Positions 512 to 22,899 of a stretch of 64,000 nucleotides of DNA are shown here, piece by piece. The notes beneath the pieces are model-generated. The model did no database searches, was not told the DNA's origin, and saw only the letters and a list, made by a program, of their open reading frames with translations. The stretch comes from an uncultured virus (IMG/VR IMGVR_UViG_3300028557_002174) (Duplodnaviria > Heunggongvirae > Uroviricota > Caudoviricetes), in IMG/VR virus record IMGVR_UViG_3300028557_002174, positions 1-64,000 of that record; one strand, written 5' to 3'. Numbering within the stretch: the first letter of the stretch is position 1; each line of letters begins with the position of its first letter. The translations under genes and the position numbers were made by a program.

Positions 512-1258
512 TTAACGATTGTCAATATAAATAATAACTTCATTATAATACTCTATAAAATGTTCGTTCCATAAGTCCCATTTTATATCAAAACCATCAA
601 TAGAGTATATTTCAAATTTTTTAAATTTAGTTAAGTAGTTGTCTCTAAAATTTCTAAATTTATTCTTATTCAGTGGGGTATTCAAATGCCACTCACCTGT
701 AATTTTTTTCACATTCAAAAGAATATACTCAATATTCTCATCGTTGAATATATCGTATTCACCACCTTCACAATCAGTTTTCATAAAATCTATCTTACCC
801 AATGAATATAAATCTATAAATGTTGAGAATTTAATAGACTCCATTTCATTTTCCCCACCAAAAAGTTGTGAATTTTCAATAATATTATTTTCGGGTCCAA
901 TCCCTTTGAATATTTGAGTTACAGGATTACCTATAGTGTTTTTAACTAAAGTTTTAAACTCTTTTTTACTTGGCTCAAAACAAAAAACGTGTTTTGGATT
1001 TTTATGTAAAATTGAATATGTGAAAGGACCAAGACTTGCCCCGATATCTAAAACAATATCACTTGGTTCCACTTCAAAAAATCTTTCATAAATCCTCCAT
1101 TCAAAAATTTCAGATATTAAAGAATTCTTATGAAACTCACTTATATGAATTGCAGAACCATCTTGATTTATGTGCCAAAGATATTGTGTCTCACCATCAA
1201 CGTCGTATTCAACAGGATTACTCATCCAACCCCAATCAAAATTTGAAATATCTATCAT
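512..1258 (-). CDS. FkbM-family SAM-dependent methyltransferase
   Basis: VLDIGASLG motif I, FEPS, and IDFMKTDCEGGEYDI motifs. Confidence 0.85.
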   Translation of the reverse strand: MIDISNFDWGWMSNPVEYDVDGETQYLWHINQDGSAIHISEFHKNSLISEIFEWRIYERFFEVEPSDIVLDIGASLGPFTYSILHKNPKHVFCFEPSKKEFKTLVKNTIGNPVTQIFKGIGPENNIIENSQLFGGENEMESIKFSTFIDLYSLGKIDFMKTDCEGGEYDIFNDENIEYILLNVKKITGEWHLNTPLNKNKFRNFRDNYLTKFKKFEIYSIDGFDIKWDLWNEHFIEYYNEVIIYIDNR

Positions 1259-3546: not shown

Positions 3547-3602
3547 ATAAAGTGTTAAGTTGATTATTGAAAATATATTATTTTATTCTATTTTTTCAAC
3601 AT

Positions 3603-4247
3603 ATGGCAAATGGTATTTATAAAATTACAGAAGATTTTGAGAAAGCTCTTTCAGATTATACGGGTGCACCATATGTGATTACCGTAGATAATATGAGTAA
3701 TGCTTTGTTTTTGGCGTTGTATTATGAAAAAAACGTTAAAAAAAGTATTACTGATGATAAAGTAGGAATTCCTTGTAGAACATATCCTTCGGTTCCGTGT
3801 GAGATTATTCATGCGGGTCTTAAAGTTGATTTTGAACCTATTGAAGGTAAAACAATTAAAGGTATGTACCAACTCAAGGGAAGTAATGTTTGGGATTCGG
3901 CATTAAGTTTTACAGCTGATATGTATAAACCAAACCAACACATTTGTGTTTCATTCACAGGTCCTTACAAACATTTCAAATTAAGTAAGGGTGGTGCAAT
4001 ATTGACAGATAGTCTTGAGGCGTATCACTGGTTTAAAAGAGCGAGATATAGTGGAAGACGTGAATGTTCTTATCATGACGATTACTTAGATATGATAGGG
4101 TGGAACTTCTACATGATGCCTGAATTGGCTGCAAGAGGATTACTTCTTATGAACCAATTCTACAATCTTGATGGTAGTAAAAAACATAACGAGGATTTGG
4201 AATTACCATATCCTGATTTATCAAAGTTTGATGTTTATAAACAATGA
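3603..4247 (+). CDS. DegT/DnrJ/EryC1/StrS-like PLP-dependent sugar aminotransferase (short form)
   Basis: FEKALSDYTGAPY..VDNMSNALFLAL, WDSA, SFTGPYKHFKLSKGGAILTD (Schiff-base Lys region), GWNFYM. ATG at 3603 is more likely than TTG at 3567. Confidence 0.75.
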   Translation: MANGIYKITEDFEKALSDYTGAPYVITVDNMSNALFLALYYEKNVKKSITDDKVGIPCRTYPSVPCEIIHAGLKVDFEPIEGKTIKGMYQLKGSNVWDSALSFTADMYKPNQHICVSFTGPYKHFKLSKGGAILTDSLEAYHWFKRARYSGRRECSYHDDYLDMIGWNFYMMPELAARGLLLMNQFYNLDGSKKHNEDLELPYPDLSKFDVYKQ

Positions 4248-4822
4248 AAAAAGCTTTGATTGGGTATGGGGGACACGCTCGTGAGGTTATGGCTCAAATG
4301 GGAGTTAAACTTACTTGTTTTGTTGACGATGAATATGTTGTTGAAGGAACACTACCATTATCAAAGTTTAACCCAAAAAAATATGCTTTGATGGTTGCAG
4401 TTGCAGACTCAAAGGATAGGTTTGATATAGTTCAAAGATTACCAAAAGAAACAAAATATTTTACTTGGATTCACCCAACTGCTTTAATCATGAGTGATGA
4501 TGTTGAAATTGGTGAAGGTAGTTTTATAGGTGCTCATTCAATCTTAACAACTAATATAAAAATAGGTAAACATGCGTTACTAAATAGAGGTAACCATATT
4601 GGTCACGATTGTGAAATTGGTAATTATTTTAGTGCGATGCCAGGAGCAATTGTTTCAGGTAATGTTACAATTCATGATTTAGTTTATATGGGTAATAATT
4701 CATCAATTAAGGAAAAATTATCAATTCATTCATTAACAACTATAGGTATGAATGGTGCGGTTGTTAAAGACATAGAAGAACTAGGAATTTATGTCGGTGT
4801 CCCAACAAAAAAAATATTATAA
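4244..4822 (+). CDS. NeuD/PglD-family sugar N/O-acetyltransferase (hexapeptide repeat)
   Basis: IGYGGHAREV N-terminus, IHPTA, IGHDC, left-handed beta-helix repeats, YVGVP. Confidence 0.9.
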   Translation: MKKALIGYGGHAREVMAQMGVKLTCFVDDEYVVEGTLPLSKFNPKKYALMVAVADSKDRFDIVQRLPKETKYFTWIHPTALIMSDDVEIGEGSFIGAHSILTTNIKIGKHALLNRGNHIGHDCEIGNYFSAMPGAIVSGNVTIHDLVYMGNNSSIKEKLSIHSLTTIGMNGAVVKDIEELGIYVGVPTKKIL

Positions 4823-5823
4823 TGAAAGATTTAATCTTAATTACCGCTTATTGTCCTGACGAACATAGAGAAAATATTCTAAGAAATTTAGTAAATTCAC
4901 TCTTAAAATTTAAAGATACTTTTGATACTTTAATTGTTAGTCATACACCAATCCCTTTTGATATTCAAAATAAAGTTAATTATTGTTTTTATGATAGTAA
5001 AAATGAGATACTTACTGATTGGGATTTACTTAACCAACCTTGGTTTAATCCAAATAATGAAAGAAGAATTCAGTCTTCATTTTTAACTGGAAAAAATACA
5101 CATCTTGCAATATGGAGAATGATGATATTGGGATTTTCGTTAGCAAAAAATATGGGATATAACAAAGTTCACCACATTGAGTACGATTGTAATATTGAAA
5201 ACATTGAAGAGTTTAAAAATAACTCTGTATTATTAGATGAATTTGATTCTGTAATTTATATTGATAGTAGAGAAAATGTTGATGACATTTTATTCGGAAG
5301 TTTCCAATCATATTTGTTACCAACATTAGATAAGTTTCTGATTAATTTAGATGAGGGAAAAATAGTTGAGATGATTAGACAATCAGAAACTAAATCACCT
5401 GAATTGATGCTTCAGAAAATATTGGAAGATAGTGGAAAAGTTTTTAAAAAAGACAGACATAGTCTCGAAGTAAATGGAAATAAATTCGGTATAATTGATG
5501 GACAAGTTGGTGTTAAGTTTATACCATGGGCGGTACCTTTTTACGATAAATTAAACGATACTATTGGATTTGTTGTTTGGAATACAAAAAATCAAAATGG
5601 TGTTGAACACATTATAATTCTTAATAATGATAGGATTGTTAATATACCAACAACATTATTAAACCATTGGAGATTAGTTAATTTAGGTAATGTAAATGAA
5701 ATCCAAAGTATATTAATAATTGAAAATGGTGAAATTAGAAATAAATTTAAATTAAATAGTAATGAAGAAATTGATATCTTCAAAAAAAGTAGTTTCAGAT
5801 ATAAAGAATCATTTCAAATATGA
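4822..5823 (+). CDS. Hypothetical protein, putative glycosyltransferase (GT-A-like)
   Basis: LILITAY N-terminal strand, HIEYD acidic motif; translationally coupled within the glycosylation operon; resembles the N-terminus of 7854..9653. Confidence 0.45.
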   Translation: MKDLILITAYCPDEHRENILRNLVNSLLKFKDTFDTLIVSHTPIPFDIQNKVNYCFYDSKNEILTDWDLLNQPWFNPNNERRIQSSFLTGKNTHLAIWRMMILGFSLAKNMGYNKVHHIEYDCNIENIEEFKNNSVLLDEFDSVIYIDSRENVDDILFGSFQSYLLPTLDKFLINLDEGKIVEMIRQSETKSPELMLQKILEDSGKVFKKDRHSLEVNGNKFGIIDGQVGVKFIPWAVPFYDKLNDTIGFVVWNTKNQNGVEHIIILNNDRIVNIPTTLLNHWRLVNLGNVNEIQSILIIENGEIRNKFKLNSNEEIDIFKKSSFRYKESFQI

Positions 5824-6374
5824 ATATAGAAAACATACATCTTTGGCATGCAGATAGGGGTACCTATTTTGACCGACATGTAAACATAATTTCATGGAGT
5901 GACCAATACAATGTTAGGGTTGGTAAATACAATTCAATTGGTAGGGATTGTAATTTTTTCTTACACGCTAATCACAGACCTGACTGGGTTACAACCTCAT
6001 CACAACTTTGGGGTCCTGTAAATCACGAGATTGCTCAAATGCATATGGATATGGGCCACCCATCCTGCAAAGGTGACATTATTATTGAAAATGACGTATG
6101 GATTGGTGCTAACTCAACGATTATGTCAGGTATAAAAATTGGTAATGGTGCTATAGTGGCGGCTGGTTCTACAGTTACTAAAGATGTTCCTCCATACGCA
6201 ATTGTTGCCGGTAATCCTGCTAAAGTTGTTAAGTATAGATTTACCGAAGAGCAAATTGAAAAACTATTATCAATTTCTTGGTGGGATTGGGATGAACAAA
6301 AAATTAGAGACAATGCAATGGATATGTGGTCCGATGATATAGATGGGTTTATTAATAAGTTTTATGGAAATTAA
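5820..6374 (+). CDS. CatB/Vat-like hexapeptide O-acetyltransferase
   Basis: KGDIIIENDVWIG...GAIVAAGSTVTKDVPPYAIVAGNPAKVVKYRF...WWDW. Confidence 0.9.
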   Translation: MNIENIHLWHADRGTYFDRHVNIISWSDQYNVRVGKYNSIGRDCNFFLHANHRPDWVTTSSQLWGPVNHEIAQMHMDMGHPSCKGDIIIENDVWIGANSTIMSGIKIGNGAIVAAGSTVTKDVPPYAIVAGNPAKVVKYRFTEEQIEKLLSISWWDWDEQKIRDNAMDMWSDDIDGFINKFYGN

Positions 6375-7857
6375 AAAAATAATATTTGCAAGTGATGACT
6401 CTTATTTCTTAGAGTTTTGGCCAATTCAGGCTAAATTGTGTCGAGAAATATTTGGTTGGGAACCAGTCCTTTTTAAAATTTCTGATGAAGATAGTGAGTT
6501 CTATGATGATGGAAACGGATTGGTAAAAAATGTTAAATTTGTTGAAGGAATACACACAGCAATTCAAGCCTGTACCGTTAGAATGTTCGGTACCAAATAC
6601 TTTCCTGATGATGTTTGTATTTGTGGTGATTTAGATATGTTGATGATTAATAAAAATTATTTTGTCGAACAACTAAAACACTACTCAGAAGATTCTTTAG
6701 TTATCATGTCGAGTGATGCATATGACTTAAGCAGACCTGAATCAAATGACTTGTTTCAAGAAGAACCACTACCATTCAAACAAGAGATGTATGGTTATAT
6801 CTACAACGCAGGTAAGGGTAAAACTTTTACAAAAATTTTAAATTCTGATTGTTCTTTTGACGAATTTATGAATAGACACTCAAACTACAAAGATGGTTAT
6901 AAAATTATGTGGTTGATTGATGAGTTCTATTTTTCAGATTGTGTAAATACCAATCAACACGATGTTGAAATCATCAAATTAAAACGAGGGCATTATAGTA
7001 AATTTTTAACCCCAAGGAGAATTGAAAGACATAACTTTCCTGTAGAATTAAAATGGGACGGTGAAATAGAAAACCAAAAAAAATATGGGGTGTATGATTT
7101 AGATAAGTTGAAACAAGGTTTTTATATTGATGTTAATTGTGTTAGACCTTACAGTGATTATAAAGATGCTATTGATGAGGTTGTAAATATTATTCTTGAA
7201 AATCAGAACAATAGTGATATGTATGGTCTGGGTCTAAAATACAATACAGACAAAGTATTGGAACATAGATATGATAGAATTTATGAAAAGTTTTTGGAAC
7301 CATTAAGTAATAAAAAAATAAAATTATTTGAAATTGGTTCTGGTAGCGAAGCGGCGTCTTTTAGAATGTGGATTGAATATTTTAAAAACGGTATGATTTA
7401 CGCTATGGATATCTCTGAAGAAAGAAATCAAGAAAGAGGTATTATGTATAAAGGTGACCAAAGTAAAATCGAAGACTTGGAAAGAATGTTTAATTTGATA
7501 GGTCAGTGTGATGTTATTATTGATGACGGAAGTCACCAACCACAACACCAAATAGAAACATTTAATTACCTATTTGAAAATATGTTAAAAGAAGGTGGAG
7601 TTTACATCATTGAAGATATTGAATGTAACTATTGGAATCCCAAAGAAACCATATATGGATATGAGATTGGTAATTATAATGTTATTGATTATTTTTCTTC
7701 AGTCCCACACAAAATAAACTCTAACTTTAGTAGGGTTAAAAATCACCAAAATATTGAATCAATTACGCATTATAAGAATTGTATTATTATAACTAAAAAA
7801 AGTGTTGAAGAAATTTTAGGTGTTAAAAAAGATTATAGATTTGGATTTATGTTATGA
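6364..7857 (+). CDS. Fusion of a putative glycosyltransferase and a class I SAM sugar O-methyltransferase
   Basis: N-terminal GDLDML (DxD). C-terminal TDK..HRY...Y, LFEIG, IIDDGSH, GGVYIIEDI. ATG at 6364 preferred. Confidence 0.7.
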   Translation: MEIKKIIFASDDSYFLEFWPIQAKLCREIFGWEPVLFKISDEDSEFYDDGNGLVKNVKFVEGIHTAIQACTVRMFGTKYFPDDVCICGDLDMLMINKNYFVEQLKHYSEDSLVIMSSDAYDLSRPESNDLFQEEPLPFKQEMYGYIYNAGKGKTFTKILNSDCSFDEFMNRHSNYKDGYKIMWLIDEFYFSDCVNTNQHDVEIIKLKRGHYSKFLTPRRIERHNFPVELKWDGEIENQKKYGVYDLDKLKQGFYIDVNCVRPYSDYKDAIDEVVNIILENQNNSDMYGLGLKYNTDKVLEHRYDRIYEKFLEPLSNKKIKLFEIGSGSEAASFRMWIEYFKNGMIYAMDISEERNQERGIMYKGDQSKIEDLERMFNLIGQCDVIIDDGSHQPQHQIETFNYLFENMLKEGGVYIIEDIECNYWNPKETIYGYEIGNYNVIDYFSSVPHKINSNFSRVKNHQNIESITHYKNCIIITKKSVEEILGVKKDYRFGFML

Positions 7858-9653
7858 AAAAAATAGTTTTAATTAGTACATATTGTGACACAATAGAAAA
7901 AATTGAAATTCTAAAAGAAAATATTATTAAAATAAAATCTTTTGGATTAGATGTTTTAGTAATAAGTCCATTAACATTACCATCAGAAATTATTGAATTG
8001 TCTGATTTTGTTTTCTTTACTAAAGAAAATCCTTTATTGCTTTGGCCTGTTCGTTCTTTTACTTTTTGGAAGTCAGTCTATACTGATGAAGGGTGGGTTA
8101 AAATGCACCACAATTTGGCGGATTATGGATGGGCTGGATTATACCAAGTTAAAAAGTTATCTCAAATTGCATTATCTTATGATTATGACATTTTTTATCA
8201 TATGATATATGACTTAGTAATTGATGACGTTGTAGAAAACGAACTAACTAACGACACTACAAATATCATCCACCCAAGAAGAGACCCACATAATCCTGAT
8301 ACGTTATGGGAAACAACTTTACACTTTATGGTTTTTGATAGACCTATGATGGAAAAAATTGTTAGTGAAATAGAACTTGATGAGTATTTGAGAACAAATG
8401 GTGTCGCAGAAGGTGAAGTTTTAAAATGGAAAAATAAATACAATATACCAACATCAAACCAACCCGTTAAAGACCTAATTTATTATTGGGAGGACACAGA
8501 TTTTTTTAATTACTCTAAGAATGAGAAGTATAAATTATACTTTAATAAGAACGATGATGGGGAAATTTGGTTAGAAGATGGACCAACAAAAGGATGGATT
8601 AACGGTAAATTAAAAATTTTCTTCTATGATGTCAAAGAAAATATTGATTTTAGTTTAAATATTAACGGAGATACACATAACTTCAAGATTAATGACACGG
8701 TGGTAATTGAATTAGATTACGACTCAACTAAAATAGATGAATTTGTAATTTTTGATGGTGAAATGACTTATGATTATTCGGATACCATAAAAAAAACAAA
8801 TCGTAACATATTTTACTACGATGAAATACCTTTTGAAATAGATTACTCACACGAAATACGTATAAACACTAAAGATTTGATTAGAGTATTTAATAAAGAT
8901 AAACTACCATTTTCATTTGAATTTAAAAGACAAATTAACCAGCGTAAAATTTGGGATGTAAAATTATATTCAGATTCTTGGGCAACATTTCCTGATACTG
9001 AAATTGTCGATGTTGTTGTCAAAGACAATCAAGATGAACTGGTGTATCATAGAAAATGGGATGTAAATACTGATGGTGATTTTATTTACAAAAAGTTGTG
9101 GAACTATTGTAAAAACAAAGAAAAATCTAAAGGTGTTGTTGTTGGAACTCATAATGGTGAATTTGGTGAATGGGTTCCTGTTGCGATTGATAAGTTATCC
9201 GAAATAACACTTATTGAGGTTAGTAAAAAACAATTCAATGAGTTAATTAAAAATTACTCGTCATTTGAGAATCTAAAATTTATAAATCAACTAGTTACTA
9301 AAGATGGAACTGATACGGTCTTTTACGAAGGTGGTAAAGGGTATACAAACACTGTTGTAAAAAGAGTTATTGATTATTGGGAGACAGAACCAATAACTGA
9401 AACTGTTAGAGAATCAATTAAATTTTCTGAATTAATAACACCTGATGTTAATTGGGTTCACACTGATGTGGAAGGTATTGATTTTGAATTAATAATGTCA
9501 TTAACGGATGAACAATTATCACATCTTGACATTATTATTTATGAATATAATAACTCAAGTGACAAGGAGAGAGAATTGATTAATAACTTTTTAATTGAAA
9601 AGGGATTTCAAACCTATAGAGAAAAAGGTGTCTCAATTGCCTTTAAGAAATAA
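7854..9653 (+). CDS. Multidomain protein: putative glycosyltransferase plus C-terminal FkbM-like methyltransferase
   Basis: IVLISTYCD..HMIYD N-terminus; C-terminal VVVGTHNG, LIE, HTDVEGID, IIYE. Confidence 0.6.
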   Translation: MKKIVLISTYCDTIEKIEILKENIIKIKSFGLDVLVISPLTLPSEIIELSDFVFFTKENPLLLWPVRSFTFWKSVYTDEGWVKMHHNLADYGWAGLYQVKKLSQIALSYDYDIFYHMIYDLVIDDVVENELTNDTTNIIHPRRDPHNPDTLWETTLHFMVFDRPMMEKIVSEIELDEYLRTNGVAEGEVLKWKNKYNIPTSNQPVKDLIYYWEDTDFFNYSKNEKYKLYFNKNDDGEIWLEDGPTKGWINGKLKIFFYDVKENIDFSLNINGDTHNFKINDTVVIELDYDSTKIDEFVIFDGEMTYDYSDTIKKTNRNIFYYDEIPFEIDYSHEIRINTKDLIRVFNKDKLPFSFEFKRQINQRKIWDVKLYSDSWATFPDTEIVDVVVKDNQDELVYHRKWDVNTDGDFIYKKLWNYCKNKEKSKGVVVGTHNGEFGEWVPVAIDKLSEITLIEVSKKQFNELIKNYSSFENLKFINQLVTKDGTDTVFYEGGKGYTNTVVKRVIDYWETEPITETVRESIKFSELITPDVNWVHTDVEGIDFELIMSLTDEQLSHLDIIIYEYNNSSDKERELINNFLIEKGFQTYREKGVSIAFKK

Positions 9654-10050
9654 CCTCTATTGATGTCCTACCATCGTTCCAATAGTTAACATCACCATAC
9701 CAAACAAAAATTTCTTCTTCTGGTTCAATATCACGATGTGCAACAAATTTAAATGTTCTTGTTTCGTTATCTGAAAACCAATAAGCGTTTGGACTTTCAC
9801 TGTGATTATAAAGACTACCGAACCCTAAAGAAATAACTTGTTCTTTCCAATCTGAAGTTCCCGATGGCCAATTGAATCTATAGTCAATAAACAAAGGACT
9901 TACTTCACCGAATTTCATTGGTAGTGACAAAATTGGACATACTTCAAAAATTTCATCTTTGTTAATTTTTTCACTTGCAAAAACACCTAATCCGTGTACA
10001 GGTGAATTTTTTACATAAATTTTTTGGGGAGGGTGAATATTCAATGTCAT
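9643..10050 (-). CDS. SET-domain protein-lysine methyltransferase
   Basis: SPVHGLGVFA, LYNHSESPNA, RDIEPEEEIFVWYG are the canonical SET motifs. Confidence 0.92.
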   Translation of the reverse strand: MTLNIHPPQKIYVKNSPVHGLGVFASEKINKDEIFEVCPILSLPMKFGEVSPLFIDYRFNWPSGTSDWKEQVISLGFGSLYNHSESPNAYWFSDNETRTFKFVAHRDIEPEEEIFVWYGDVNYWNDGRTSIEVIS

Positions 10051-10102
10051 AATATTACTTTTTTAAAAAAATAGTTTATAATTATGTTATTGAAAATAGA
10101 TT

Positions 10103-10921
10103 ATGAAAAAAGTTATTGTTACAGGAACAAGAGGTTTCATCGGGAAATCATTAGCATTTCAACTTGAAAGAGATGGTTATTTAGTCACTCAATTTGATGA
10201 TTCATATTTTTTAAACTTAAATTGGGGTGAAAAATTATTACAAATACTTGAAAGTATGAATTATGATGCGGTATTCCATGTTGGAGCGTGTTCAGATACT
10301 TTAGAAACCAATGTTGATTATATGATGACTCGTAATTACGAATCAACTAAAATCATAATGGATTGGTGTGTTAAGAATAACAAACCAATGATTTACTCAT
10401 CATCTGCTGCGAATTATGGAACTAATAATTTATATCCATCAAACTTATATGGTTGGAGTAAATATGTTGGTGAGGGATATGTAATATCCAATGGAGGCAT
10501 TGCTCTTAGATATTTCAATGTCTATGGACCAGGAGAAGAAGACAAAGGTAAAATGGCGTCCGTTGCTTATCAGATGTTTATAAAGAATACTAAAGGTGAA
10601 AAAATAACACTGTTCCCGAAAAAACCACAAAGAGATTTTGTTTACATCAAAGATATTGTTTCAGCCAACATTCATGCGTTGGAAAACTATGAAGAATTGG
10701 GTAGTAAATACTATGAAGTAGGTAGTGGTACCGCAAGAACCTTTGAAGATGTCCTTAATAATATGGGTATTGAATATGGTTATACATCAGAAGATGTAAT
10801 TCCAAATGGATATCAATTCTATACGTGTAGTAATAAATCAAAATGGATGAATGGTTGGGAATCCAAGTGGGATTTAGAAATGGGAATAAAAGATTACAAA
10901 GAATATCTTGAGAAAAAATGA
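10103..10921 (+). CDS. hldD: ADP-L-glycero-D-manno-heptose 6-epimerase (HldD/RfaD-like extended SDR)
   Basis: TGTRGFIG, FHVGACSDT, YMMTRNY, YSSSAANYG, YGWSK (YxxxK), RYFNVYGPGEEDKGKMASVA. Confidence 0.85.
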   Translation: MKKVIVTGTRGFIGKSLAFQLERDGYLVTQFDDSYFLNLNWGEKLLQILESMNYDAVFHVGACSDTLETNVDYMMTRNYESTKIIMDWCVKNNKPMIYSSSAANYGTNNLYPSNLYGWSKYVGEGYVISNGGIALRYFNVYGPGEEDKGKMASVAYQMFIKNTKGEKITLFPKKPQRDFVYIKDIVSANIHALENYEELGSKYYEVGSGTARTFEDVLNNMGIEYGYTSEDVIPNGYQFYTCSNKSKWMNGWESKWDLEMGIKDYKEYLEKK

Positions 10922-11670
10922 GAATGTACGAAACAATGGCATTAAGCCGTTCAGGACACCACTCAATTAAAAATTGGATTATTAGAAATTTAGTTGGTTT
11001 CCAATTAGAGTGGAAATTCAAAATGATTAATGCTTCAGGAACTAATTTTTTTCATTTAGGTGAGGCAAACCACGATATACCATTAAGTTTTAAATTTTTA
11101 GATGAACATAAAGAATCTATTGGTTTAATTTTTGTCAATTATGAAGACGCTCCTTATGATTATACTATCTTTAATGAAGATAGAATTTATAAGGCACCAT
11201 TATCACTTGAAAAAAGAAACGAATATAATATAGACCATTTAGGTCGGGTTTGTTTTTTAAGAGATTTTTATAATAATTTATCATCACGTATTCGTTCAAA
11301 TGAGAGAACCATTTTTACAAAATGGGACACTCAAGAACCACATCTTTTTAAAGTTGATGAGATATTCATTGAACGTTGGAAGAGTCATGCAAGGGCTTGT
11401 GCAAACAACCAAGTATCTTTTTTAAAGTTTGAAGATTGGATTAGTAATAAAGAAGTTCGTGATAAATTTTTGTTTGAAACTTTTGGTGTCAAAGACCATT
11501 ATGGGTTAGACGGTATTAAAGGAAGTCAAAGTTCTTTTCAAACATGGGATAAAGTTGAAGAAAGATATCATGAATTAAACTTAAGTGATAAGATGAAAGA
11601 CTTGATTTCATCTGATGATGAATTACATCATTTAATTAGTGACTTAGGTTATAAAAAAATAAATTTGTAA
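10918..11670 (+). CDS. Putative sulfotransferase-fold (P-loop) protein
   Basis: N-terminal SRSGHHSIKNWI resembles a 5'-PSB loop; LRDFYNNLSS resembles a 3'-PB motif. Confidence 0.5.
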   Translation: MRMYETMALSRSGHHSIKNWIIRNLVGFQLEWKFKMINASGTNFFHLGEANHDIPLSFKFLDEHKESIGLIFVNYEDAPYDYTIFNEDRIYKAPLSLEKRNEYNIDHLGRVCFLRDFYNNLSSRIRSNERTIFTKWDTQEPHLFKVDEIFIERWKSHARACANNQVSFLKFEDWISNKEVRDKFLFETFGVKDHYGLDGIKGSQSSFQTWDKVEERYHELNLSDKMKDLISSDDELHHLISDLGYKKINL

Positions 11671-11671
11671 A

Positions 11672-12061
11672 ATGGAAAAACCAAAGGTAATTAACGCAAT
11701 TGAATGTGAAGGGTGTAATGTTCCCAAAGGATGGGGACATGAAGTGATATTCGTGAATAACGAATTATATTGTGGTAAACTATTAGTGTTCAAAAAAGGT
11801 GCGAAATTTTCAATGCACTACCACCTAATAAAAGATGAGACTTGGTATGTTGATGAAGGTGAATTTATCTATAGATGGATAGACACCAAAACCGCTGAAG
11901 TCATTGAGCAACATTTAAAAGTTGGTGATACTGTAAGACAATTACCAGGTCAACCACACCAGTTGGAGGCTTTGACCGATGGAACCGTATTTGAAGTGTC
12001 AACACAACATTTTGATTCTGATTCTTATCGCGTATGGAAGGGAGACAGTCAACCGAAATAA
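11672..12061 (+). CDS. Cupin-fold sugar isomerase/epimerase-like protein
   Basis: KGWGHE, SMHYHLIKDETWYV, PGQPHQL, EVST metal-binding cupin motifs. Confidence 0.8.
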   Translation: MEKPKVINAIECEGCNVPKGWGHEVIFVNNELYCGKLLVFKKGAKFSMHYHLIKDETWYVDEGEFIYRWIDTKTAEVIEQHLKVGDTVRQLPGQPHQLEALTDGTVFEVSTQHFDSDSYRVWKGDSQPK

Positions 12062-12441
12062 AGGTTTGGGTTAATGGTTCTTTTGATGTTCTTCACAGAG
12101 GGCACATTGAACTCATTCAATTTGCGTCAAAGTTTGGTACTTTAAGAGTAGGGATTGACACTGATGAAAGAATAAAAGAATTTAAGGGACATAATAGACC
12201 CTTCAATTCTTTTGAGGACAGAGAATATTTTATGTCTAAGATTAAAGGTGTTAATAGTGTGGTTGGATTTGGAACAAGGGAAGAACTTGAAAGACAAATT
12301 AAAGAATGGAATCCTGATATCTTAGTTGTTGGTAGTGAATACGAAACTAAAGAAGTTATTGGTGGTCAGTTCGCAAAACAAGTTATCTTTTTTCCAAAAG
12401 TAGGAGAGTTCTCTACAACAAAAATATTGAGAGATAGATGA
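12034..12441 (+). CDS. hldC: Heptose-1-phosphate nucleotidyltransferase (HldE C-terminal domain, HldC/RfaE2-like)
   Basis: NGSFDVLHRGH (HxGH), VGIDTD, KGHNRP, PDILVVGSEY, C-terminal STT; located between hldD and the heptose kinase. Confidence 0.75.
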   Translation: MEGRQSTEIKVWVNGSFDVLHRGHIELIQFASKFGTLRVGIDTDERIKEFKGHNRPFNSFEDREYFMSKIKGVNSVVGFGTREELERQIKEWNPDILVVGSEYETKEVIGGQFAKQVIFFPKVGEFSTTKILRDR

Positions 12442-13070
12442 AAATTAATGAGATACCAGTAATATTACATTCAATGGATTCATATTCCAAATTTTGGAAT
12501 CCATGGTATCACTTATTTAATTTACATTGTAAAAATCACGGACCAATTATCTTTTTATCTGAAGAAAAAGAACCTGATTTTGTGAATGATGTTACTCACA
12601 TTAAAACTGGTAAAGGTGAGTGGGGTGAAAGACTATTAATTGCTTTAGAACAAATTGAATCTGAACTTGTATTTTATATGCAAGAGGATTTTTGGTGTAT
12701 TAAAGATTTTGAATTAAAGGATAATATTCTTGAAATGTTTGAAGAATATAAAATGGACCAATTACATATTAAGGAAAATATTAATCTAATAAAAACCATT
12801 AAAATTAAAGATAATTTATTAAAGTTTGCTCAAGATTCTGAATATACTCAGAACCATCAATTTGGTCTTTGGAGAAAAAGTAAATTAAAAGATAATGTTT
12901 TACCTAACGAGAATCCTTGGGAAAATGAAATAAATGGTAGTATTCGTTTGAATAAAAATCCACATAATATTTATCTATTAGATTATCACTGGTATATTAG
13001 TGTTTGTCGTAGAGGTGAAATAATGCCTCGGGGACAAAAAATTATTGAAAAATATGGTATCAACTTCTAA
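12438..13070 (+). CDS. Putative GT-A-fold glycosyltransferase
   Basis: WGERLLIAL, VFYMQEDFW, LWRK, PWENE pattern typical of GT-like ORFs in polysaccharide loci. Confidence 0.55.
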   Translation: MKINEIPVILHSMDSYSKFWNPWYHLFNLHCKNHGPIIFLSEEKEPDFVNDVTHIKTGKGEWGERLLIALEQIESELVFYMQEDFWCIKDFELKDNILEMFEEYKMDQLHIKENINLIKTIKIKDNLLKFAQDSEYTQNHQFGLWRKSKLKDNVLPNENPWENEINGSIRLNKNPHNIYLLDYHWYISVCRRGEIMPRGQKIIEKYGINF

Positions 13071-13833
13071 CCTGAATTACATTACACCAAACAAAACTAT
13101 TGAGGAAACAATTGGGATTATTAAAGATAAAATCTTAAATAAAACACCGTTTGCATTAACAAGATTTGGTGATGGTGAAATTTATATTTTAAACCGTTCA
13201 GGTGGTGGTGGTTTTGAGGAAAAAAATTGCAAACTTTGGGGATATAAATACCCTCAAGAAGTTAATCAATTTTATGGTGATGCTGGTGATATAATAAAAA
13301 ACGCTTTTGTTAAATCCGACATAATTGGGTTGATGGACCCGAAGACAAAAATTGTTAATATTGCGTACAATTACAATACTTGGTCTATTGAAAAGTTTAA
13401 AGCTGAGTTGTGGGGAACTAATTTAAAAAACATACAAGTATGTGACCACATGATTGCACGTAGTCCACAACTTGGGAATGTTAATCAATTAAAAGACATA
13501 CTTGATGGTGTATCTGTAAACATTGTCTCACCTAATACCGAATTATTATCAACAAAAAAACTTGAAGAAAAGTTACAAACAACTGTAAACTTTACAACAC
13601 ACTCTAAAGAGATTAACTTTAGAAATAGAGATGAGTTTTTAAAATCTTTTGAGAATATTAAAGAAGATGTTGTGTTGTTAGGTGTTGGTTTACAAAAAGA
13701 TTATGGGGTAATTCTCAGAGATGAGTTTGGTAAGATAGCTCTTGACATGGGAGCAACTATGGATGCTTGGGCTGGCATAATAAGTAGACCTTGGTTTAAT
13801 AAAGGTCAATCTCAAGAATATTTGTTAATGTAA
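13054..13833 (+). CDS. GT-D fold (DUF1792-like) glycosyltransferase
   Basis: ALTRFGDGE signature and C-terminal ALDMGATMD. Confidence 0.75.
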   Translation: MVSTSNLNYITPNKTIEETIGIIKDKILNKTPFALTRFGDGEIYILNRSGGGGFEEKNCKLWGYKYPQEVNQFYGDAGDIIKNAFVKSDIIGLMDPKTKIVNIAYNYNTWSIEKFKAELWGTNLKNIQVCDHMIARSPQLGNVNQLKDILDGVSVNIVSPNTELLSTKKLEEKLQTTVNFTTHSKEINFRNRDEFLKSFENIKEDVVLLGVGLQKDYGVILRDEFGKIALDMGATMDAWAGIISRPWFNKGQSQEYLLM

Positions 13834-14609
13834 TGGCAAAAATTTTAGTTATAGGTGAACTTTGTGTTGACCGATTTGTGTATTGTGAAATAAAAAGATT
13901 GTGTCCTGAGGCACCTGTTCCGGTATTGAACCCGATTCAAACAACCACCAACAATGGTATGGCGGGTAATGTTGTTGAAAACTTAAAAACTCTATTACCT
14001 GAGGGTGATATTGTTCATTGGTATCAACACAATAAAATTGAAAAAACAAGATATGTTGAGAAAAAAAGTAATCAAATGATTACACGTGTTGATGAGGGTG
14101 AATTACAACCATGTGAAAGTTTGAATTTTCTTTCACCTGAACAGAAAAAAACTATCATGGAATCCGATGTTGTTATAATAAGTGATTATAATAAGGGATA
14201 TGTTAGTGAACAAATGATTCGTGATATAAGTAAAATTGCTAGTTTATCTATTTTAGATACTAAGAAGAAATTGAGTTGGGATATTATTGAAAATATTTCT
14301 TTTGTCAAACAAAATGAAATAGAATATAATAACAATAAAAATTTGGTTGACGAACATCCCGATAAATTTATAATAACTTTGGGTTCTAAAGGAGCGATGT
14401 ATATGGGTAGTATTTATAGGTCACCAAAACCACAAGATACTATAGATGTTAGTGGCGCTGGTGATACTTTTGTTGCATCATTTGTATCCTACTATATCAA
14501 AACAAATGACTTAATTCAATCAATATCTTTTGCAAACGAGGTTTGTTCAGATGTGGTAAGTAAAAAAGGAGTATCCTTACCCGATGAGAAATTTAAGATT
14601 TCTTTTTGA
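13833..14609 (+). CDS. hldA: D-glycero-D-manno-heptose-7-phosphate kinase (HldE N-terminal domain, HldA/RfaE1-like, PfkB family)
   Basis: RLCPEAPVPV, GMAGNV, KTR, ISDYNKG, DVSGAGDTF. Confidence 0.88.
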   Translation: MAKILVIGELCVDRFVYCEIKRLCPEAPVPVLNPIQTTTNNGMAGNVVENLKTLLPEGDIVHWYQHNKIEKTRYVEKKSNQMITRVDEGELQPCESLNFLSPEQKKTIMESDVVIISDYNKGYVSEQMIRDISKIASLSILDTKKKLSWDIIENISFVKQNEIEYNNNKNLVDEHPDKFIITLGSKGAMYMGSIYRSPKPQDTIDVSGAGDTFVASFVSYYIKTNDLIQSISFANEVCSDVVSKKGVSLPDEKFKISF

Positions 14610-14778: not shown

Positions 14779-14856
14779 AATTATAAATATATTGAAGAAT
14801 TCCTTTATTAATCTCATAATAACTATATCTTTTTTTGATGAAAAATATCATTTGGG

Positions 14857-14863
14857 TATTTAT
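14857..14863 (+). promoter_or_regulatory. TATTTAT motif (candidate phage late promoter element)
   Basis: Recurs shortly upstream of many structural-type genes in the window. Confidence 0.55.
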
Positions 14864-14881
14864 TAGGTAGAGATTTCTTAG

Positions 14882-18985: not shown

Positions 18986-18986
18986 A

Positions 18987-20246
18987 ATGGCAATAAAAGT
19001 TACAATCAATTCTCTTACAGGAACGTCACCATATGATGTTTATATCTGTCAAAGTGGTGGTACCTCATGCTTTTACATATCAACTATTGTGACTGGCGAT
19101 TTACCATACATATTTGATATACCATCACCGTACAACAATGGTGATAGTTACATGGTTAAAGTTGTGGATGATGAAAATTGTGTGATAACAGGTATCACAT
19201 CAATTGCATATACCGTAACTCCAACACCAACGCCGACTGTTACACCGTCAATAAGTTTAACTCCATCACTCACACCAACAAACACTGTAACACCAACTAG
19301 TACTACAACACAAACACCGACACCAACTGTAACCAAAACTTCAACTCCAACCGTTACACCTACTAAAACTTCAACCCCCACGAACTCGTTAACACCTACA
19401 GTAACGCCAACAAACTCACTTACTCCAACAACAAGTAAGACACCAACTCCTACAGTTACTCCAACATACACACCAACTAACACACCTTCACAAACAGCGA
19501 CTCAAACCCCAACCCCAACTGAAACTCCAACTCAAACACCAACATCAACTCAAACACCAACTCCAACAATAACGACAACTTCAACAGTTACAGTAACACC
19601 AACAGTAACTCCGACAAATTCTTTAACACCAACTCAAACAATTACACCGAGTATAACAGTAAGTCCATCAGTTACTCCAACAAACACTATTACTCCGACT
19701 AGTTCCTTGATTGTTAGTCCTACACCAACATCTTCGGTAACACCTTCAATAACTCCTGAGGCGACTCAATCGCCCACACCAACACCGTCAGTAACACCTG
19801 GTCTTAGTCCGAGTACTACACCAACACCAACGGTAACTCCATCAGGAGGACCATTACTTGGTTTTGCGTATGATTTGAATACGAATTTTAACACTCCACC
19901 TACCGGTGAAACAGTGTTCTTAAACTACATAACATCAACAGGTATTACAACACCAAATCAATTCGGAATTTCTGATAGAGCGGTTTATTGGAGTTATGTT
20001 GACATTAGTGGTACAAGCAGATACAGTTATTATTCCAACTTGTTAACAACAAGTTCTTATTCAATATCATTCTCTCAAAGTGGTGCTACGGCAACTTATA
20101 GTGGTAATACAAATAGTTTCGCGGTTGATGGTTCTAACTTCTTCCATGATGAAACAGCACCACTTCAAGCGGGACAACTTGTATTGATTTCGGGTTCACC
20201 AATAAATTTTGTTGTTAATCAACCGGTATACATAAAATACCAATAA
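18987..20246 (+). CDS. Thr/Pro-rich mucin-like putative virion protein
   Basis: ~70-aa beta-rich N-domain, ~210-aa TPT tract, C-terminal beta domain. Confidence 0.7.
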
Positions 20247-20263
20247 AATATTATTTATAACTG

Positions 20264-20911
20264 ATGCCAGTTAATATAGAAATAACTACAATTACAGCTA
20301 ACACACCTTTTGATGTGTATGTTTGTGATGCTTTAAGTGGTAGTTGTACCTATGTCTCAACTGTTGCAAATGCACCATATGTGTTTGAAGTTGATGACAC
20401 ATATGCTACAGAAAATTTTATAATTAAAGTTGTGGACGTTGCTGGTTGTATAGTTTATCATACAGTTGCCATAACACCAACTCCAACGCCCACACAAACG
20501 CCAACACCAACTAAGACGGCAACTCCAACACCAACTAAAACGGTGACACCAACTGTTACACCAACTGTATCAACCAGTGTAGTTGCATCACCGACTCCAA
20601 CGCCAACTAAAACACCTACTCCAACTCCAACTCCATTAGTTTATGGACACACCATAGGTGCTAATTTATATGTTGGTTCTTCAGGTGTTTGTGATGATTC
20701 ACTTTTGGTGACTCAATACTATACTTATTATGTTGATACACCAACAATACCTGTATTGGGTGCGGAGGTTTATTCAACAAATCTTGGGGGTGTTTTATAC
20801 AATCCGGTAAATCAAATTAATAGGTGGAGAAAAATGACATTTGGTGCTAATACATACGCGGTACAAATAGATTCAACAGGAATCATAATTGACTTTATTA
20901 TTTGTCCCTGA
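20264..20911 (+). CDS. Thr/Pro-rich putative virion protein, N-domain paralogous to 18987..20246
   Basis: PFDVYVC...C.YVST...PYVF...KVVD..C is shared with the previous gene; TATTTAT at 20252. Confidence 0.7.
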
Positions 20912-22899
20912 TGGCTTGTACAACTTGTGTTAGATGGATGGTATGGAATAATTCTGATGTAAATCAGATTTATTATACCTATAATTGTACCACCTTATCT
21001 CTTGAAAGTCATGTTATTGGTGCGGGACAATTTTCAAGTGTTTGTGGTTGTTTAGAGAACGGTGCTTACTCAGATTCTGAGGATGTCTATATTGAAAATG
21101 GTGGAACAGGTTATATTAATTTTGAGGGTATATTACTTTATCCTTGTGAGGAAACTCCTGAACCTTCGTTTACCCCAAGTCCATTCCCAACAAGAACCCC
21201 AAACCACACACCAACACCAACATTAATAGTTTGTGGTTCAGGTTATACAACAGGACAATACTATTATTATGATTGTTGTGGAGTGTTTCAAGAAGGAAAC
21301 GGAGAAGAAACCGCAATTATTTTTGATTACACAAAGCCATACAACGGTGTTGTTAAATTGGGGGTACCAGCGTCAACGTCTTGTGTAACACCAACACCCA
21401 CACCTTCAATAACGGCAACAAATACTCTTACACCAACACCGACAAATACAAAGACACCAACACCCACACCAACTTTAACACCTACTCCAACGATTACTCC
21501 AAGTAATCAATCCTTTACAAAATTAGCGAACAATTGTGATGTAATTACATTGTTTCCACTTGGGGTTGAATGTTATGGAACCAACCCATCGTCTTCAACA
21601 AGTTACGATGGAAAATTATATTTGAGAATAACAGGTGGAACTGCTCCTTATAATATTACTTGGGAGGGTGGACAAAAAACACCATACCTATTTAATTTAG
21701 ATGGGGGTGAATACACAGTAACTGTTGTTGATTTTTATGGTGATTTTACAGCGACTACAACATGTTCAATGATAGTTCCGTCACCAACACCAACGCCAAC
21801 ACTTACACCAACAAATACACCAACACCATCACCAGTTTATCCAACACTTTGTTTTAATATTATTTGGCAAGAACAAGTTCCTGTTCAAATTGAATTTACA
21901 CCAAATGGTGTTGTCAATGGTAAACCATCATGGACAAATGGTTCAGGATACAATGTTGTATGGAACCCAACTCAAGGTGTGTGGGTAACGAGTGGATACA
22001 CAGCATATGGTGGAACACTTAACTCACAATCACCAACAGTACCACCATTGAGTGGTTGGTATTCAGTTGGTTCAGAAATTCCTGCAACTGTTAGTGTTCA
22101 GGATGAATCATGTGCAACTGCGGTATTCTTATCGGCACAAATTCTTACAAGTTTGGCAGACTGTGAAGCAGTTTGTAACGGTTCAATCTTAATTAATCCG
22201 ATTGGAGGAACAGGACCTTACCAATATTCTATTAACAATGGAACAACATACCAAACATCAAACATATTCTCTGATTTGTGTGGTGGAAGTTATAGTGTTG
22301 TGGTAAAAGATTCAAATGGTGATGAGTACTCTCAAGTAACAACAGTTGCAAACCAAGCATCGGTTACAACTTATAGTATTGGTGTTCAGAAACTATCAAA
22401 TCCAATTGGAGTAAATCAAGAGTCAATGACTTGGAAGGTTAATATTATACCACCAATCCCACAAGGTACACAAATCACATTTGATTTGTTAATTAATAAC
22501 GACCAATTGGTTCAAAGACCTGGTGACGGTATAATTGATTATACAAATGTGGTTAAGAAAAACAACACAACATTAACAACTACACCAGTATCAAGTTCAT
22601 CAACAACTAATAGACCATATTGTTCACCAAATACACAAACTCAAACCGTTGATGTTTCAACCTATACAACAATTACGATGGGTTATAATGATGTTGTTAG
22701 CGGTACATCAGTATCTGACATGGAAGTTACTCTACCAAGAAATGTCCAAGGATGTTCAACAGTTATTAAACAAAATGTGACAGTATCAACCACAAATCAA
22801 TCTATCTCAGGATGTATTTGTTGTTCAGTTGTGAATAGTGAAGGAACGGCAATAATGCAACATGCTCTTGGGGCTAATCAAGCTGGCGGTGGGGTATAA
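20911..22899 (+). CDS. Thr/Pro-rich putative virion/adhesin protein with SprB-like repeats
   Basis: TGGTAPYNITW...L.GGEYTVTVVD and GGTGPYQYSINNG...FSDLCGGSYSVVVKDSNG (SprB-type). TGATG overlap gives ATG at 20911. Confidence 0.7.
   Translation: MACTTCVRWMVWNNSDVNQIYYTYNCTTLSLESHVIGAGQFSSVCGCLENGAYSDSEDVYIENGGTGYINFEGILLYPCEETPEPSFTPSPFPTRTPNHTPTPTLIVCGSGYTTGQYYYYDCCGVFQEGNGEETAIIFDYTKPYNGVVKLGVPASTSCVTPTPTPSITATNTLTPTPTNTKTPTPTPTLTPTPTITPSNQSFTKLANNCDVITLFPLGVECYGTNPSSSTSYDGKLYLRITGGTAPYNITWEGGQKTPYLFNLDGGEYTVTVVDFYGDFTATTTCSMIVPSPTPTPTLTPTNTPTPSPVYPTLCFNIIWQEQVPVQIEFTPNGVVNGKPSWTNGSGYNVVWNPTQGVWVTSGYTAYGGTLNSQSPTVPPLSGWYSVGSEIPATVSVQDESCATAVFLSAQILTSLADCEAVCNGSILINPIGGTGPYQYSINNGTTYQTSNIFSDLCGGSYSVVVKDSNGDEYSQVTTVANQASVTTYSIGVQKLSNPIGVNQESMTWKVNIIPPIPQGTQITFDLLINNDQLVQRPGDGIIDYTNVVKKNNTTLTTTPVSSSSTTNRPYCSPNTQTQTVDVSTYTTITMGYNDVVSGTSVSDMEVTLPRNVQGCSTVIKQNVTVSTTNQSISGCICCSVVNSEGTAIMQHALGANQAGGGV

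Follow-up and report, generated by a model that had tools for sequence, protein, structure and literature searches.

A mobile phage sugar cassette with a TibC/Aah-type heptosyltransferase fusion and its possible role in O-glycosylation of virion fibres

TibC/Aah-type O-heptosyltransferases (the BAHT family) use ADP-heptose as donor and modify the passenger beta-helix of autotransporters. They are known so far only from bacterial autotransporter adhesins (TibC paper, eLife 2014, PMC4358343). Glycosylation of phage virions has been demonstrated in very few systems; the mycobacteriophages studied by Freeman et al. (2023, Cell Host Microbe) are glycosylated at the C-termini of capsid and tail-tube subunits, as summarised in PMC12619734. 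Here we analyse a 64,000-base stretch of viral DNA (the window: bases 1-64000 of the 77,665-base IMG/VR virus record IMGVR_UViG_3300028557_002174, in which terminal repeats are absent), whose island of sugar genes (512-14609) encodes a fusion of a GT4 glycosyltransferase with a BAHT domain, next to an FkbM-family methyltransferase. From sequence and genomic context, on which the whole case is built, we lean on balance towards a phage cassette that O-glycosylates Ser/Thr-rich virion fibres in the host cytoplasm.

Compared with TibC (structures 4RAP and 4RB4) and Aah, the C-terminal 346 aa of the fusion score above the family cut-off and keep the catalytic Asp, the Thr/Lys/Trp ligands, the four Cys and a Ser of the AAH type. 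The fusion differs in being phage-encoded, in its N-terminal GT4 domain (joined by an FkbM-type insert in contig L016; labels G001-G012 and L004-L126 denote related or cassette-carrying viral contigs that we compared with the window), and in the loss of Arg-286 and of the thumb, which makes a TibC-like dodecamer doubtful. It also has no autotransporter as acceptor, none being found in the record, and its neighbours are collagen-like, Gly-Ser-Ser (GSS) and Thr-Pro-rich (TP-rich) fibres. With the mycobacteriophage system, as summarised in PMC12619734, the window shares phage transferases near structural genes, but it has the BAHT family, a donor-synthesis module and repeat-rich candidate acceptors; the mycobacteriophage enzymes O-glycosylate virion proteins. 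DNA hypermodification clusters likewise contain kinase-like, nucleotidyltransferase and GT-B genes, but according to Pyle et al. (Cell Rep 2024; bioRxiv 2023.12.21.572611) they are anchored to C5-methyltransferase/5mYOX or thymidylate-synthase-family (ThyS) genes and use T4 beta-GT-like transferases, none of which lies in or near the island.

The pathway to ADP-L-glycero-beta-D-manno-heptose (GmhA, HldE or HldA+HldC, GmhB, HldD) is mirrored by separate kinase-, adenylyltransferase- and epimerase-like genes, but the island enzymes score under the equivalog cut-offs, and GmhA and GmhB were not found in the record. Glycosylated collagen-like or serine-rich surface fibres are known from Bacillus anthracis (BclA), from streptococci (serine-rich-repeat adhesins, with GT-D enzymes of DUF1792) and from Mimivirus (collagen modification). 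These systems follow the same logic, in that a fibre of repeats, Gly-X-Thr or Ser-rich, is encoded together with cytoplasmic transferases devoted to it; the sequence link to them is a weak GT-D-like match to PF22882 and not to the DUF1792 model, and we know of no case among them in which heptose is the linking sugar. Our literature search, from which subscription journals were largely absent, returned no description of a phage BAHT, of a phage ADP-heptose module for proteins or of heptosylated virion proteins, and no paper on Mel-JY01, the cultured phage discussed below.

The GT4::BAHT fusion and its FkbM partner

The NCBIfam model TIGR04414 (hepto_Aah_TibC) matches residues 418-759 of the fusion with 215 bits, above its equivalog cut-off of 200 (216.4 bits in a six-frame search), Pfam Glycos_transf_1 matches residues 186-311, and the TibC structure 4rap aligns with an E-value of 1.6e-37. 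We mapped the functional residues given in PMC4358343 onto the 4rap alignment and onto an alignment of eight phage homologues. According to that paper, the catalytic base of TibC is Asp-110, its ligands are Thr-226, Lys-230 and Trp-305, and its iron finger is built by Cys-339, Cys-342, Cys-358 and Cys-370. The equivalents in the fusion, D494 for the base and T614, K618 and W682 for the ligands, are invariant in all eight phage homologues, as are C717, C720, C736 and C748, which align with the iron-finger cysteines. Stereoselectivity is set in TibC by Pro-300, which confers specificity for D,D-heptose, while AAH has Ser-294 instead and accepts L,D-heptose (same source). This site is Ser in 8 of 8 phage homologues, and the L,D-heptose-accepting form fits the HldD-like epimerase encoded in the same island. 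By its score and key residues the transferase can largely be regarded as a genuine member of the BAHT family, and the GT4::BAHT heptosyltransferase placed at position 1255 by the original prediction (made from the letters of the window alone) is upheld. In the GT4 half, the pair E284-x7-E292, which we take to be the GT4 catalytic motif, is also invariant in all eight.

The FkbM gene adjoins the BAHT gene in G001, G003, G004, G006 and G008, and in the fusion of L016 the alignment places an FkbM-type domain between the GT4 and BAHT halves, which indicates that GT4, BAHT and FkbM travel as a conserved trio. Longer fusions are encoded by G006 (1229 aa) and by Mel-JY01 (1226 aa). In metagenomes, the fusion is represented by 1789 clusters (90% identity, automatically named by JGI) at E <= 1e-10 among 3322 candidates. 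Among 185,579 species genomes there was one match, on a 3.9-kb contig of a metagenome-assembled genome (MAG). This contig, L126 (JABMPP010000123.1; 68% identity), is assigned to a 'Candidatus Woesearchaeota' MAG and is probably a mis-binned phage fragment. The GT4::BAHT fusion thus appears, by these searches, to be essentially restricted to phages.

Genomic context of the cassette

Both flanks of the island encode Ser/Thr-repeat proteins, a GSS fibre on the left and TP-rich proteins on the right. Since the window starts inside the gene for the GSS fibre, the left flank was invisible to the original prediction, which missed an acceptor candidate at least equal to those it named. We read the full gene in the identical contigs L004 and L005 (473-480 aa): it encodes 75 consecutive G-X-Y triplets (X is Ser in 45 and Thr in 23, Y is Ser in 73), with a Pfam Collagen match of 113.5 bits and a C-terminal knob. 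The Lys residues of this fibre are regularly spaced. The same knob domain terminates collagen-like proteins of the tail-fibre type in relatives, and its homologues adjoin BAHT/FkbM genes in G006 and G008 and collagen-like fibres in G005. On the other side, the four predicted Thr-Pro-rich proteins are real (motif counts in Table 1), and TP-rich open reading frames (ORFs) are conserved in relatives. By eye, neither the TP-rich nor the GSS proteins have signal peptides. TP-rich protein 1 carries small Cys-containing domains on Thr-Pro tracts, the longest of 313 aa, with eight inter-tract segments longer than 20 aa. Its length is 1367 aa in the window, 1329 aa in L031 (2071-6060) and 1315 aa in L032 (1836-5783), with 127, 118 and 111 motifs, while the product of the neighbouring gene is 99-100% identical; this suggests fast variation in tract length, similar to that of mucin-type repeats. 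In TP-rich protein 3, both the length and the alternating Thr positions are kept in 18 orthologues, and an AlphaFold2 (AF2) model (pLDDT 72.8) consists of two beta-sandwiches joined by a disordered linker. Foldseek with this model gave no match at E <= 0.001 in the PDB (the best, an FN3 pair, had an E-value of 0.05) and ten in BFVD, all of them uncharacterised phage proteins.

Close relatives of the fusion were found at thirteen viral loci, two of them identical to the window, and we compared four cassette-carrying contigs of other lineages (G001, G003, G004 and G005) with the window in full. Strong matches (56-92% identity) were confined to island genes, the remainder being weak (27-48%) or driven by repeats; in these four contigs phmmer found no homologues of the TP proteins or of the 729-aa protein encoded after them. 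The core GT4::heptosyltransferase with FkbM is a mobile cassette that occurs in at least three other, otherwise unrelated phage lineages. In three other lineages the cassette is present and TP-rich ORFs are absent, and none of five cassette-carrying contigs from other lineages encodes a homologue of TP-rich protein 3.

In these lineages the transferase genes lie among virion structural genes, and the window's own flanks are fibre-like by sequence. In the lineage of G003, G005, L013, L014 and L016 (sheaths 65-68% identical to one another), the fusion is directly upstream of an 83-aa ORF that is followed by genes for tail sheath, tail tube and baseplate hub, and in G005 and L016 it is clustered with genes for collagen-like fibres and 2-oxoglutarate (2OG)-Fe(II) oxygenases, those of L016 being putative. 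G005 encodes an 823-aa fusion of GT4, GT25 and 2OG-Fe(II) oxygenase (L029:11835-14921) and a separate 2OG-Fe(II) oxygenase, and L016 has ORFs of 786 and 202 aa at the matching positions (L016:5503-8474). The arrangement in G005 recalls collagen hydroxylase/glycosyltransferase pairs. In G001 and G004 the island has terminase/sheath genes on one side and, on the other, the gene for a small fibre with Gly-Pro-Thr (GPT) repeats; in G001 this fibre is the sole flagged repeat ORF of 97 genes, two genes from the BAHT. Directly adjoining the G001 island is a gene for a 1557-aa, 45-Cys protein with PKD and CHU_C domains, the latter a type IX secretion signal (L017:13584-18257), that is, a Bacteroidota-type surface-protein architecture within a phage. 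The cultured Microcystis phage Mel-JY01 carries the fusion (44% identity, 317 bits to TIGR04414) two genes from a protein with 26% Ser+Thr annotated as 'structural protein', with terminase and capsid genes nearby. The GSS, GPT and collagen-type neighbours of the cassette carry phage tail-fibre N- or C-terminal domains.

To follow the window's own lineage we used the 729-aa protein as marker. It was found at 79 viral loci, of which 57 were distinct; the 50 with at least 8 kb upstream were counted. TP-rich ORFs lay upstream in 44 of these and on either side in 48, and 17 had a homologue of an island gene in the 10-kb flank. At a marker identity of at least 60% (24 loci) the corresponding counts were 24, 24 and 14, and below 60% (26 loci) they were 20, 24 and 3; island-gene homologues are undercounted here, because the TP block occupies most of the 10-kb flank. 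A BAHT above cut-off is encoded by six of ten large relatives and, among the seven with a completeness of 99% or more, by four (G006, G007, G008 and G010). Together, 48 of 50 for the TP-rich ORFs and 6 of 10 for the BAHT mark the TP block as core, and the sugar cassette as accessory and exchangeable.

In this lineage, too, the cassette abuts Ser/Thr-rich ORFs, in a layout like that of the window. G006 has, in order, the TP block, one ORF, the fusion, FkbM and the knob protein; G008 has the TP block, tailoring genes, the fusion, a second BAHT domain, FkbM and a knob fibre of 132 G-X-Y triplets with 48% Ser+Thr. A TP-rich ORF directly abuts the fusion in L051 and L100-102 and lies one gene from it in G010, where the fusion is 87 kb from the marker. 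In G012, one of whose TP-rich ORFs has 247 motifs, the corresponding locus between knob-bearing fibre and TP block (L121:6531-9372) holds no BAHT; in its place are the genes for another glycosyltransferase (550 bits to phrog_24687) and for a carbamoyltransferase of the Nol-like type (406 bits), suggesting a hot-spot for exchanged sugar cassettes. The cassette is consistently found beside Ser/Thr-rich fibres, but these need not be the TP proteins. The predicted co-occurrence of island and TP-rich genes therefore held only in part: TP-rich ORFs are present in 48 of 50 loci regardless of island genes, and three of seven near-complete relatives lack the BAHT.

Donor, tailoring and neighbouring genes

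All the elements named in the original prediction are present where it placed them, in an island that begins with FkbM and the fusion on the minus strand and continues as a packed, overlapping plus-strand run (3567-14609) with a SET-domain gene on the minus strand inside it (Table 1). The predicted heptose kinase, nucleotidyltransferase and HldD epimerase each have the heptose family as their best match by a wide margin, though below the equivalog level. The kinase scores 124.1 bits with TIGR02198 (rfaE_dom_I; E 6.4e-36, cut-off 345), the next unrelated family being ribokinase at 1e-11; the nucleotidyltransferase scores 84.6 bits with TIGR02199 (rfaE_dom_II; E 5.7e-24, cut-off 181.5), against 62 bits for glycerol-3-phosphate cytidylyltransferase; and the epimerase scores 193.7 bits with TIGR02197 (heptose_epim; cut-off 274.6), against 52 bits for GalE. 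Orthologues of the epimerase occur in G003 (68% identity) and G004 (63%), while the large BAHT-positive relatives have weak, distant matches to HldD among short-chain dehydrogenases/reductases (SDRs) only. By phmmer, homologues of the kinase, nucleotidyltransferase, GT-D-like protein, cupin and 210-aa protein are all missing from the four other-lineage contigs; a GT-D (69%) and a kinase (59%) were found in the close relative L032 alone. On this evidence the heptose-donor genes appear nearly unique to the window phage.

Table 1. Features of the window discussed in the text (positions in the window; bits are model scores)
Feature	Position	Strand	Match or remark
(Gly-Ser/Thr-Ser)x75 fibre with knob, C-terminal 155 aa	2..469	+	phrog_17490/28536; gene cut by window start
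FkbM-family methyltransferase	512..1258	-	PF05050 31.6 bits, TIGR01444 43.9 bits, both over cut-off
GT4 :: TibC/Aah-type (BAHT) O-heptosyltransferase fusion, 763 aa	1255..3546	-	TIGR04414; TibC 4rap match
Compact 214-aa DegT/PseC-like aminotransferase-like protein	3603..4247	+	PF01041 44.8 bits, N-terminal part only
NeuD/PglD/VioB-type sugar N-acetyltransferase-like	4244..4822	+	TIGR03570 152 bits (cut-off 160.8); Hexapep and PglD_N Pfam matches
333-aa protein, possible glycosyltransferase	4822..5823	+	no Pfam/NCBIfam match
Vat/CatB-like hexapeptide-repeat O-acetyltransferase	5820..6374	+	NF000311 133.8 bits (cut-off 300); Pfam Hexapep 42.5
504-aa protein, weak class-I S-adenosylmethionine-methyltransferase-like C-terminus	6343..7857	+	PF13578 18.9 bits (cut-off 26.3)
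599-aa protein	7854..9653	+	no family match
SET-domain protein (protein lysine methyltransferase fold), 135 aa	9643..10050	-	PF00856 55.5 bits
HldD-like ADP-heptose 6-epimerase-like SDR	10103..10921	+	TIGR02197
250-aa sulfotransferase-like protein (lead)	10918..11670	+	no Pfam/NCBIfam match; ESM-Atlas
Small cupin, possible sugar epimerase/isomerase	11672..12061	+	PF07883 29.2 bits; WbuC-family match weak
HldE domain II-like heptose-1-phosphate adenylyltransferase-like	12034..12441	+	TIGR02199; PF01467 46 bits
210-aa protein	12438..13070	+	no family match; no homologue in G001, G003, G004, G005
GT-D-fold-like glycosyltransferase	13045..13833	+	PF22882 37.2 bits (cut-off 27)
HldE domain I-like heptose-7-phosphate kinase-like (PfkB family)	13833..14609	+	TIGR02198; PF00294 59.7 bits
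TP-rich protein 1, 1367 aa	14882..18985	+	127 [ST]P[ST] motifs
TP-rich protein 2, 419 aa	18987..20246	+	43 [ST]P[ST] motifs
TP-rich protein 3, 215 aa	20264..20911	+	16 [ST]P[ST] motifs; beta-sandwich, ~55-aa TP linker, beta-sandwich
TP-rich protein 4, 665 aa, SprB repeats	20902..22899	+	21 [ST]P[ST] motifs; PF13573 36.5 bits
729-aa lineage marker, 3' of TP block	22926..25115	+	2915 clusters at E <= 1e-5
Three tandem collagen-like tail-fibre proteins, ~1100-1190 aa	49842..60173	+	PHROG tail-fibre/collagen, up to 624 bits

Amino-, acetyl- and methyl-tailoring functions had been predicted and are present, as the DegT-like protein, two hexapeptide acetyltransferases and FkbM. Enzymes of the DegT family are usually about 360-380 aa long. 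The longest ORF of the DegT-like gene begins at a TTG at 3567, and orthologues of the 214-aa protein with 76-85% identity exist in four other phage records; as the length is kept in all four, we rejected the possibility of a truncated pseudogene. By eye, the protein keeps a Lys-containing SF..YK..GGA stretch; it could be an aminotransferase reduced in size, or its fold could serve another purpose. The predicted sulfo-enzyme has no family-model match, and what remains of it is a lead from ESM-Atlas, where the 250-aa protein has similarities of 0.96 and 0.95 to clusters with PF00685 in 43% and 23% of their members; an RSGHH motif is seen by eye at its N-terminus. The GT-D assignment holds for PF22882 and falls short for the NCBIfam model GT-D_rel (NF040628; 31.2 bits, cut-off 75); by eye the protein has a GDGE motif, presumably of the DXE type.

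The 'several further GT-like ORFs' of the original prediction come down to weak leads on two paralogues, the 333-aa and 599-aa proteins (N-termini related at E 7e-5), with viral-only relatives. For the 333-aa protein ESM-Atlas returned viral-only clusters at 0.98 and sub-threshold leads to GT25/WavE at 0.88-0.89. The 599-aa protein is split in relatives (into genes for 323 and 276 aa in G004), and a likeness of its C-terminus to FkbM was dropped, the pairwise E-value being 0.04 only. The 504-aa protein is 92% identical to its G004 orthologue, and the SET-domain protein has orthologues (62-63% identity) that accompany the cassette in G001 and G004, contigs unrelated to the window. None of the island proteins has a membrane segment (the highest Kyte-Doolittle 19-residue mean is 1.52, the threshold 1.6), and Pfam and NCBIfam scans found no flippase, polymerase, ligase or lipid-carrier/polyprenyl-phosphate transferase among them. 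The original prediction named genes for the lipopolysaccharide (LPS) core or its export as lacking; for export and lipid-carrier genes this was borne out by the scans, and all island enzymes are soluble.

Outside the island, the record encodes a primase, an exonuclease, SbcC/SbcD, a sigma-70-type factor, an amidase and a RuvC-like protein, Dam-type and N6/N4 DNA methylases, and LAGLIDADG and GIY-YIG endonucleases. The primase, SbcCD, sigma factor, collagen-like tail fibres and homing endonucleases identify the contig as phage and not cellular, as had been assumed. CheckV gives the record a completeness of 26%, which for 77,665 bases corresponds to a genome of about 300 kb; complete relatives have 309-322 kb. 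The window has no tRNA genes. A Bacteroidota host is hinted at by the SprB repeats of the ORF at 20902-22899, by the CHU_C and PKD protein on the related island contig and by one fold match, to a Cellulophaga phage protein. In its traits the window phage resembles the 'moraphages' (2025), which PMC12619734 describes as jumbo, DnaJ-encoding phages with predicted Bacteroidota hosts.

A full DnaJ (J domain, Zn-finger and C-terminal domain) is encoded at 43280-44206 of the window, and a DnaJ-type CXXCXGXG domain occurs in another protein, encoded at L003:8379-9155, L003 being the part of the record beyond the window. The phage genome also codes for thioredoxin and glutaredoxin, which, with the DnaJ proteins, may be relevant to the folding of many Cys-rich fibre domains. 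Beyond the window, the record closes with two more genes for glycosyltransferases of the GT2 family (L003:11094-13497; record 75094-77497). The 729-aa marker recurs in thousands of metagenomic clusters with an identity of about 70%; it belongs to no family, is unmatched among cultured phages and does not resemble the tail sheath of G003. The three collagen-like fibre genes, 46 kb from the island, each encode 280-297 G-X-Y triplets, in which G-A-Q and G-x-T predominate and Y is Thr in 33-102 cases; they lift the local G+C to 0.45-0.54, against about 0.30-0.37 elsewhere. The G+C of the island, 0.30-0.31, is slightly under that of most of the window.

Weighing the readings and significance

If the cassette O-glycosylates virion fibres, its targets would be soluble, Ser/Thr-rich fibrous phage proteins, modified before or during virion assembly. 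The BAHT domain would transfer heptose from ADP-heptose to the hydroxyls of Ser (or Thr), the GT4 domain, a retaining enzyme, would attach a second sugar, and FkbM would O-methylate the glycan. In the window phage this core would be extended by a partial ADP-heptose supply (the HldE-kinase-, HldE-adenylyltransferase- and HldD-like enzymes), and amino-, acetyl-, methyl- and possibly sulfo-tailoring together with the GT-D-like transferase would yield a decorated heptose-based glycan. Such a coat may serve shielding, stability or adhesion. As acceptors we would rank the GSS fibre beside FkbM first, the downstream Thr-Pro tracts second and the collagen-like tail fibres third; that the TP-rich proteins are the specific acceptors is a doubtful proposition, for which they qualify no better than the GSS fibre. 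Of the original reading, virion O-glycosylation as such is carried by the BAHT score and residues, the soluble enzymes, the Ser/Thr-repeat flanks and the position in virion modules elsewhere, while self-containedness and a tight link to the TP proteins were given up.

Several observations weigh against this reading. In the fusion itself, Arg-286 of TibC, which binds sugar and whose alanine mutant abolished or greatly reduced heptosylation, falls in a column that is Ala in the window and A/S/M/F/V across the eight homologues, and a nine-residue gap in the query over TibC positions ~262-270 deletes the beta-hairpin thumb, whose Phe-265/Val-266 build the dodecamer ring (TibC data from PMC4358343). 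The fusion may therefore depart from TibC in how it binds its donor, oligomerises and recognises its acceptor, and the alignment suggests that the chemistry is probably BAHT-like but without a TibC-type ring. On the donor side, all three heptose enzymes score under their equivalog cut-offs, the kinase family is found in none of five large BAHT-positive relatives, and no GmhA or GmhB (SIS, HAD) was detected among 72 Pfam-scanned ORFs of the window and L003 (77.7 kb; the record is 26% complete). With these two not found, the pathway is partial and has to draw on host intermediates, so that the 'self-contained' system of the original prediction does not hold. On the acceptor side, known BAHT acceptors are folded beta-helices and not disordered tracts, the TP proteins match only PHROGs of unknown function, and an AF2 model of the 729-aa marker from a 15-sequence alignment (pLDDT 41) is unusable. 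Finally, a BAHT is missing from G009, G011 and G012 (99-100% complete), all three of which have TP-rich ORFs, and none of the 95 genes of G003 (75 kb), which has the BAHT, is a repeat ORF, although this contig starts at the island and its upstream flank is missing.

Among the alternatives, one that we consider unlikely, yet less so than the others, is that the island is an auxiliary metabolic module which remodels glycans of the host surface (LPS core, capsule or a host glycoprotein pathway) and so blocks superinfection or aids release. HldE/HldD-like, DegT-like and NeuD-like enzymes are typical of LPS and capsule loci, such genes are frequent in large aquatic phages, the island is horizontally mobile and of slightly low G+C, and an incomplete pathway must plug into host metabolism. 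However, the island encodes no initiating polyprenyl-phosphate transferase, flippase, polymerase, ligase or membrane protein, and the one transferase that can be placed in a family with confidence is an enzyme acting on proteins. The cassette is, moreover, repeatedly found in virion modules or beside fibres, in four lineages, where an auxiliary metabolic module would not be predicted.

It is still less probable, in our view, that the cassette hypermodifies phage DNA by placing heptose (and further sugars) on a hydroxylated or hydroxymethylated base, which would block host nucleases. This possibility, to which the original prediction gave no weight, also counts against protein glycosylation, as phage DNA heptosylation has since been demonstrated: in Pyle et al. 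(bioRxiv 10.1101/2023.12.21.572611), a phage kinase-like enzyme, a cytidylyltransferase and a GT-B enzyme put mono- and di-heptose on 5-hydroxymethylcytosine. Genes for a sugar kinase, for a nucleotidyltransferase and for GT-B enzymes are present in the window, too, and the TP block is followed by RuvC-like, primase and exonuclease genes. The transferase, however, matches the BAHT family at equivalog level and is not T4 beta-GT-like; the DNA methylases found are N6/N4 only, and the 77.7 kb (record 26% complete) yielded no C5-methyltransferase, Tet/JBP or ThyS-family gene, the control of the Tet_JBP search being silent. Complete relatives do encode a ThyS-family gene (G006, G008 and G010), but about 155 kb separate it from the cassette in G006 and G008, whereas in known clusters for DNA glycosylation such a gene directly adjoins the rest. 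The company of the cassette is fibre, sheath and terminase genes, not nucleotide metabolism.

We give equally little credence to the enzyme glycosylating non-virion proteins (host type IX-secreted or autotransporter adhesins, or non-structural phage proteins), with the repeat neighbours as passengers of a variable region: bacterial BAHTs do modify host adhesins (PMC4358343), the TP block is present irrespective of the BAHT, and the SprB and CHU_C/PKD domains of neighbours resemble Bacteroidota surface proteins, but the TP and GSS proteins lack visible signal peptides, the GSS, GPT and collagen-type neighbours bear tail-fibre domains, and the adjacency to fibres recurs in lineages that share nothing else.

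Going beyond O-glycosylation of fibres by this one cassette, a broader picture can be drawn only tentatively. Jumbo phages, probably of Bacteroidota, might keep a 'glycotype' hot-spot between fibre genes, in which sugar cassettes are swapped horizontally in the manner of O-antigen islands, the GT4::BAHT cassette being one option and the genes of G012 another. The resulting coat, attached at hundreds of Ser/Thr sites of virion fibres, would be mucin-like and heptose-based, with methyl, acetyl and possibly sulfate groups, and the chemistry of this glycocalyx would vary between otherwise near-identical phages; the window phage would add an ADP-heptose supply of its own.

If virion O-glycosylation by the cassette is true, it would add BAHT to the enzyme families, and heptose to the linking sugars, of virion glycosylation, through a gene that is abundant in metagenomes and essentially phage-restricted, and of which a carrier phage in culture, Mel-JY01, exists; the presumed donor is made by E. 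coli laboratory strains. For the O-heptosylation of proteins, the thumb-less phage BAHT with its fused GT4, extended in at least one phage by an FkbM-type domain, would offer a compact tool. The purpose of the large Ser/Thr-rich repeat proteins of aquatic jumbo phages would be explained, and a variable glycan coat on these phages could affect adsorption, stability, grazing and recognition by host defences.

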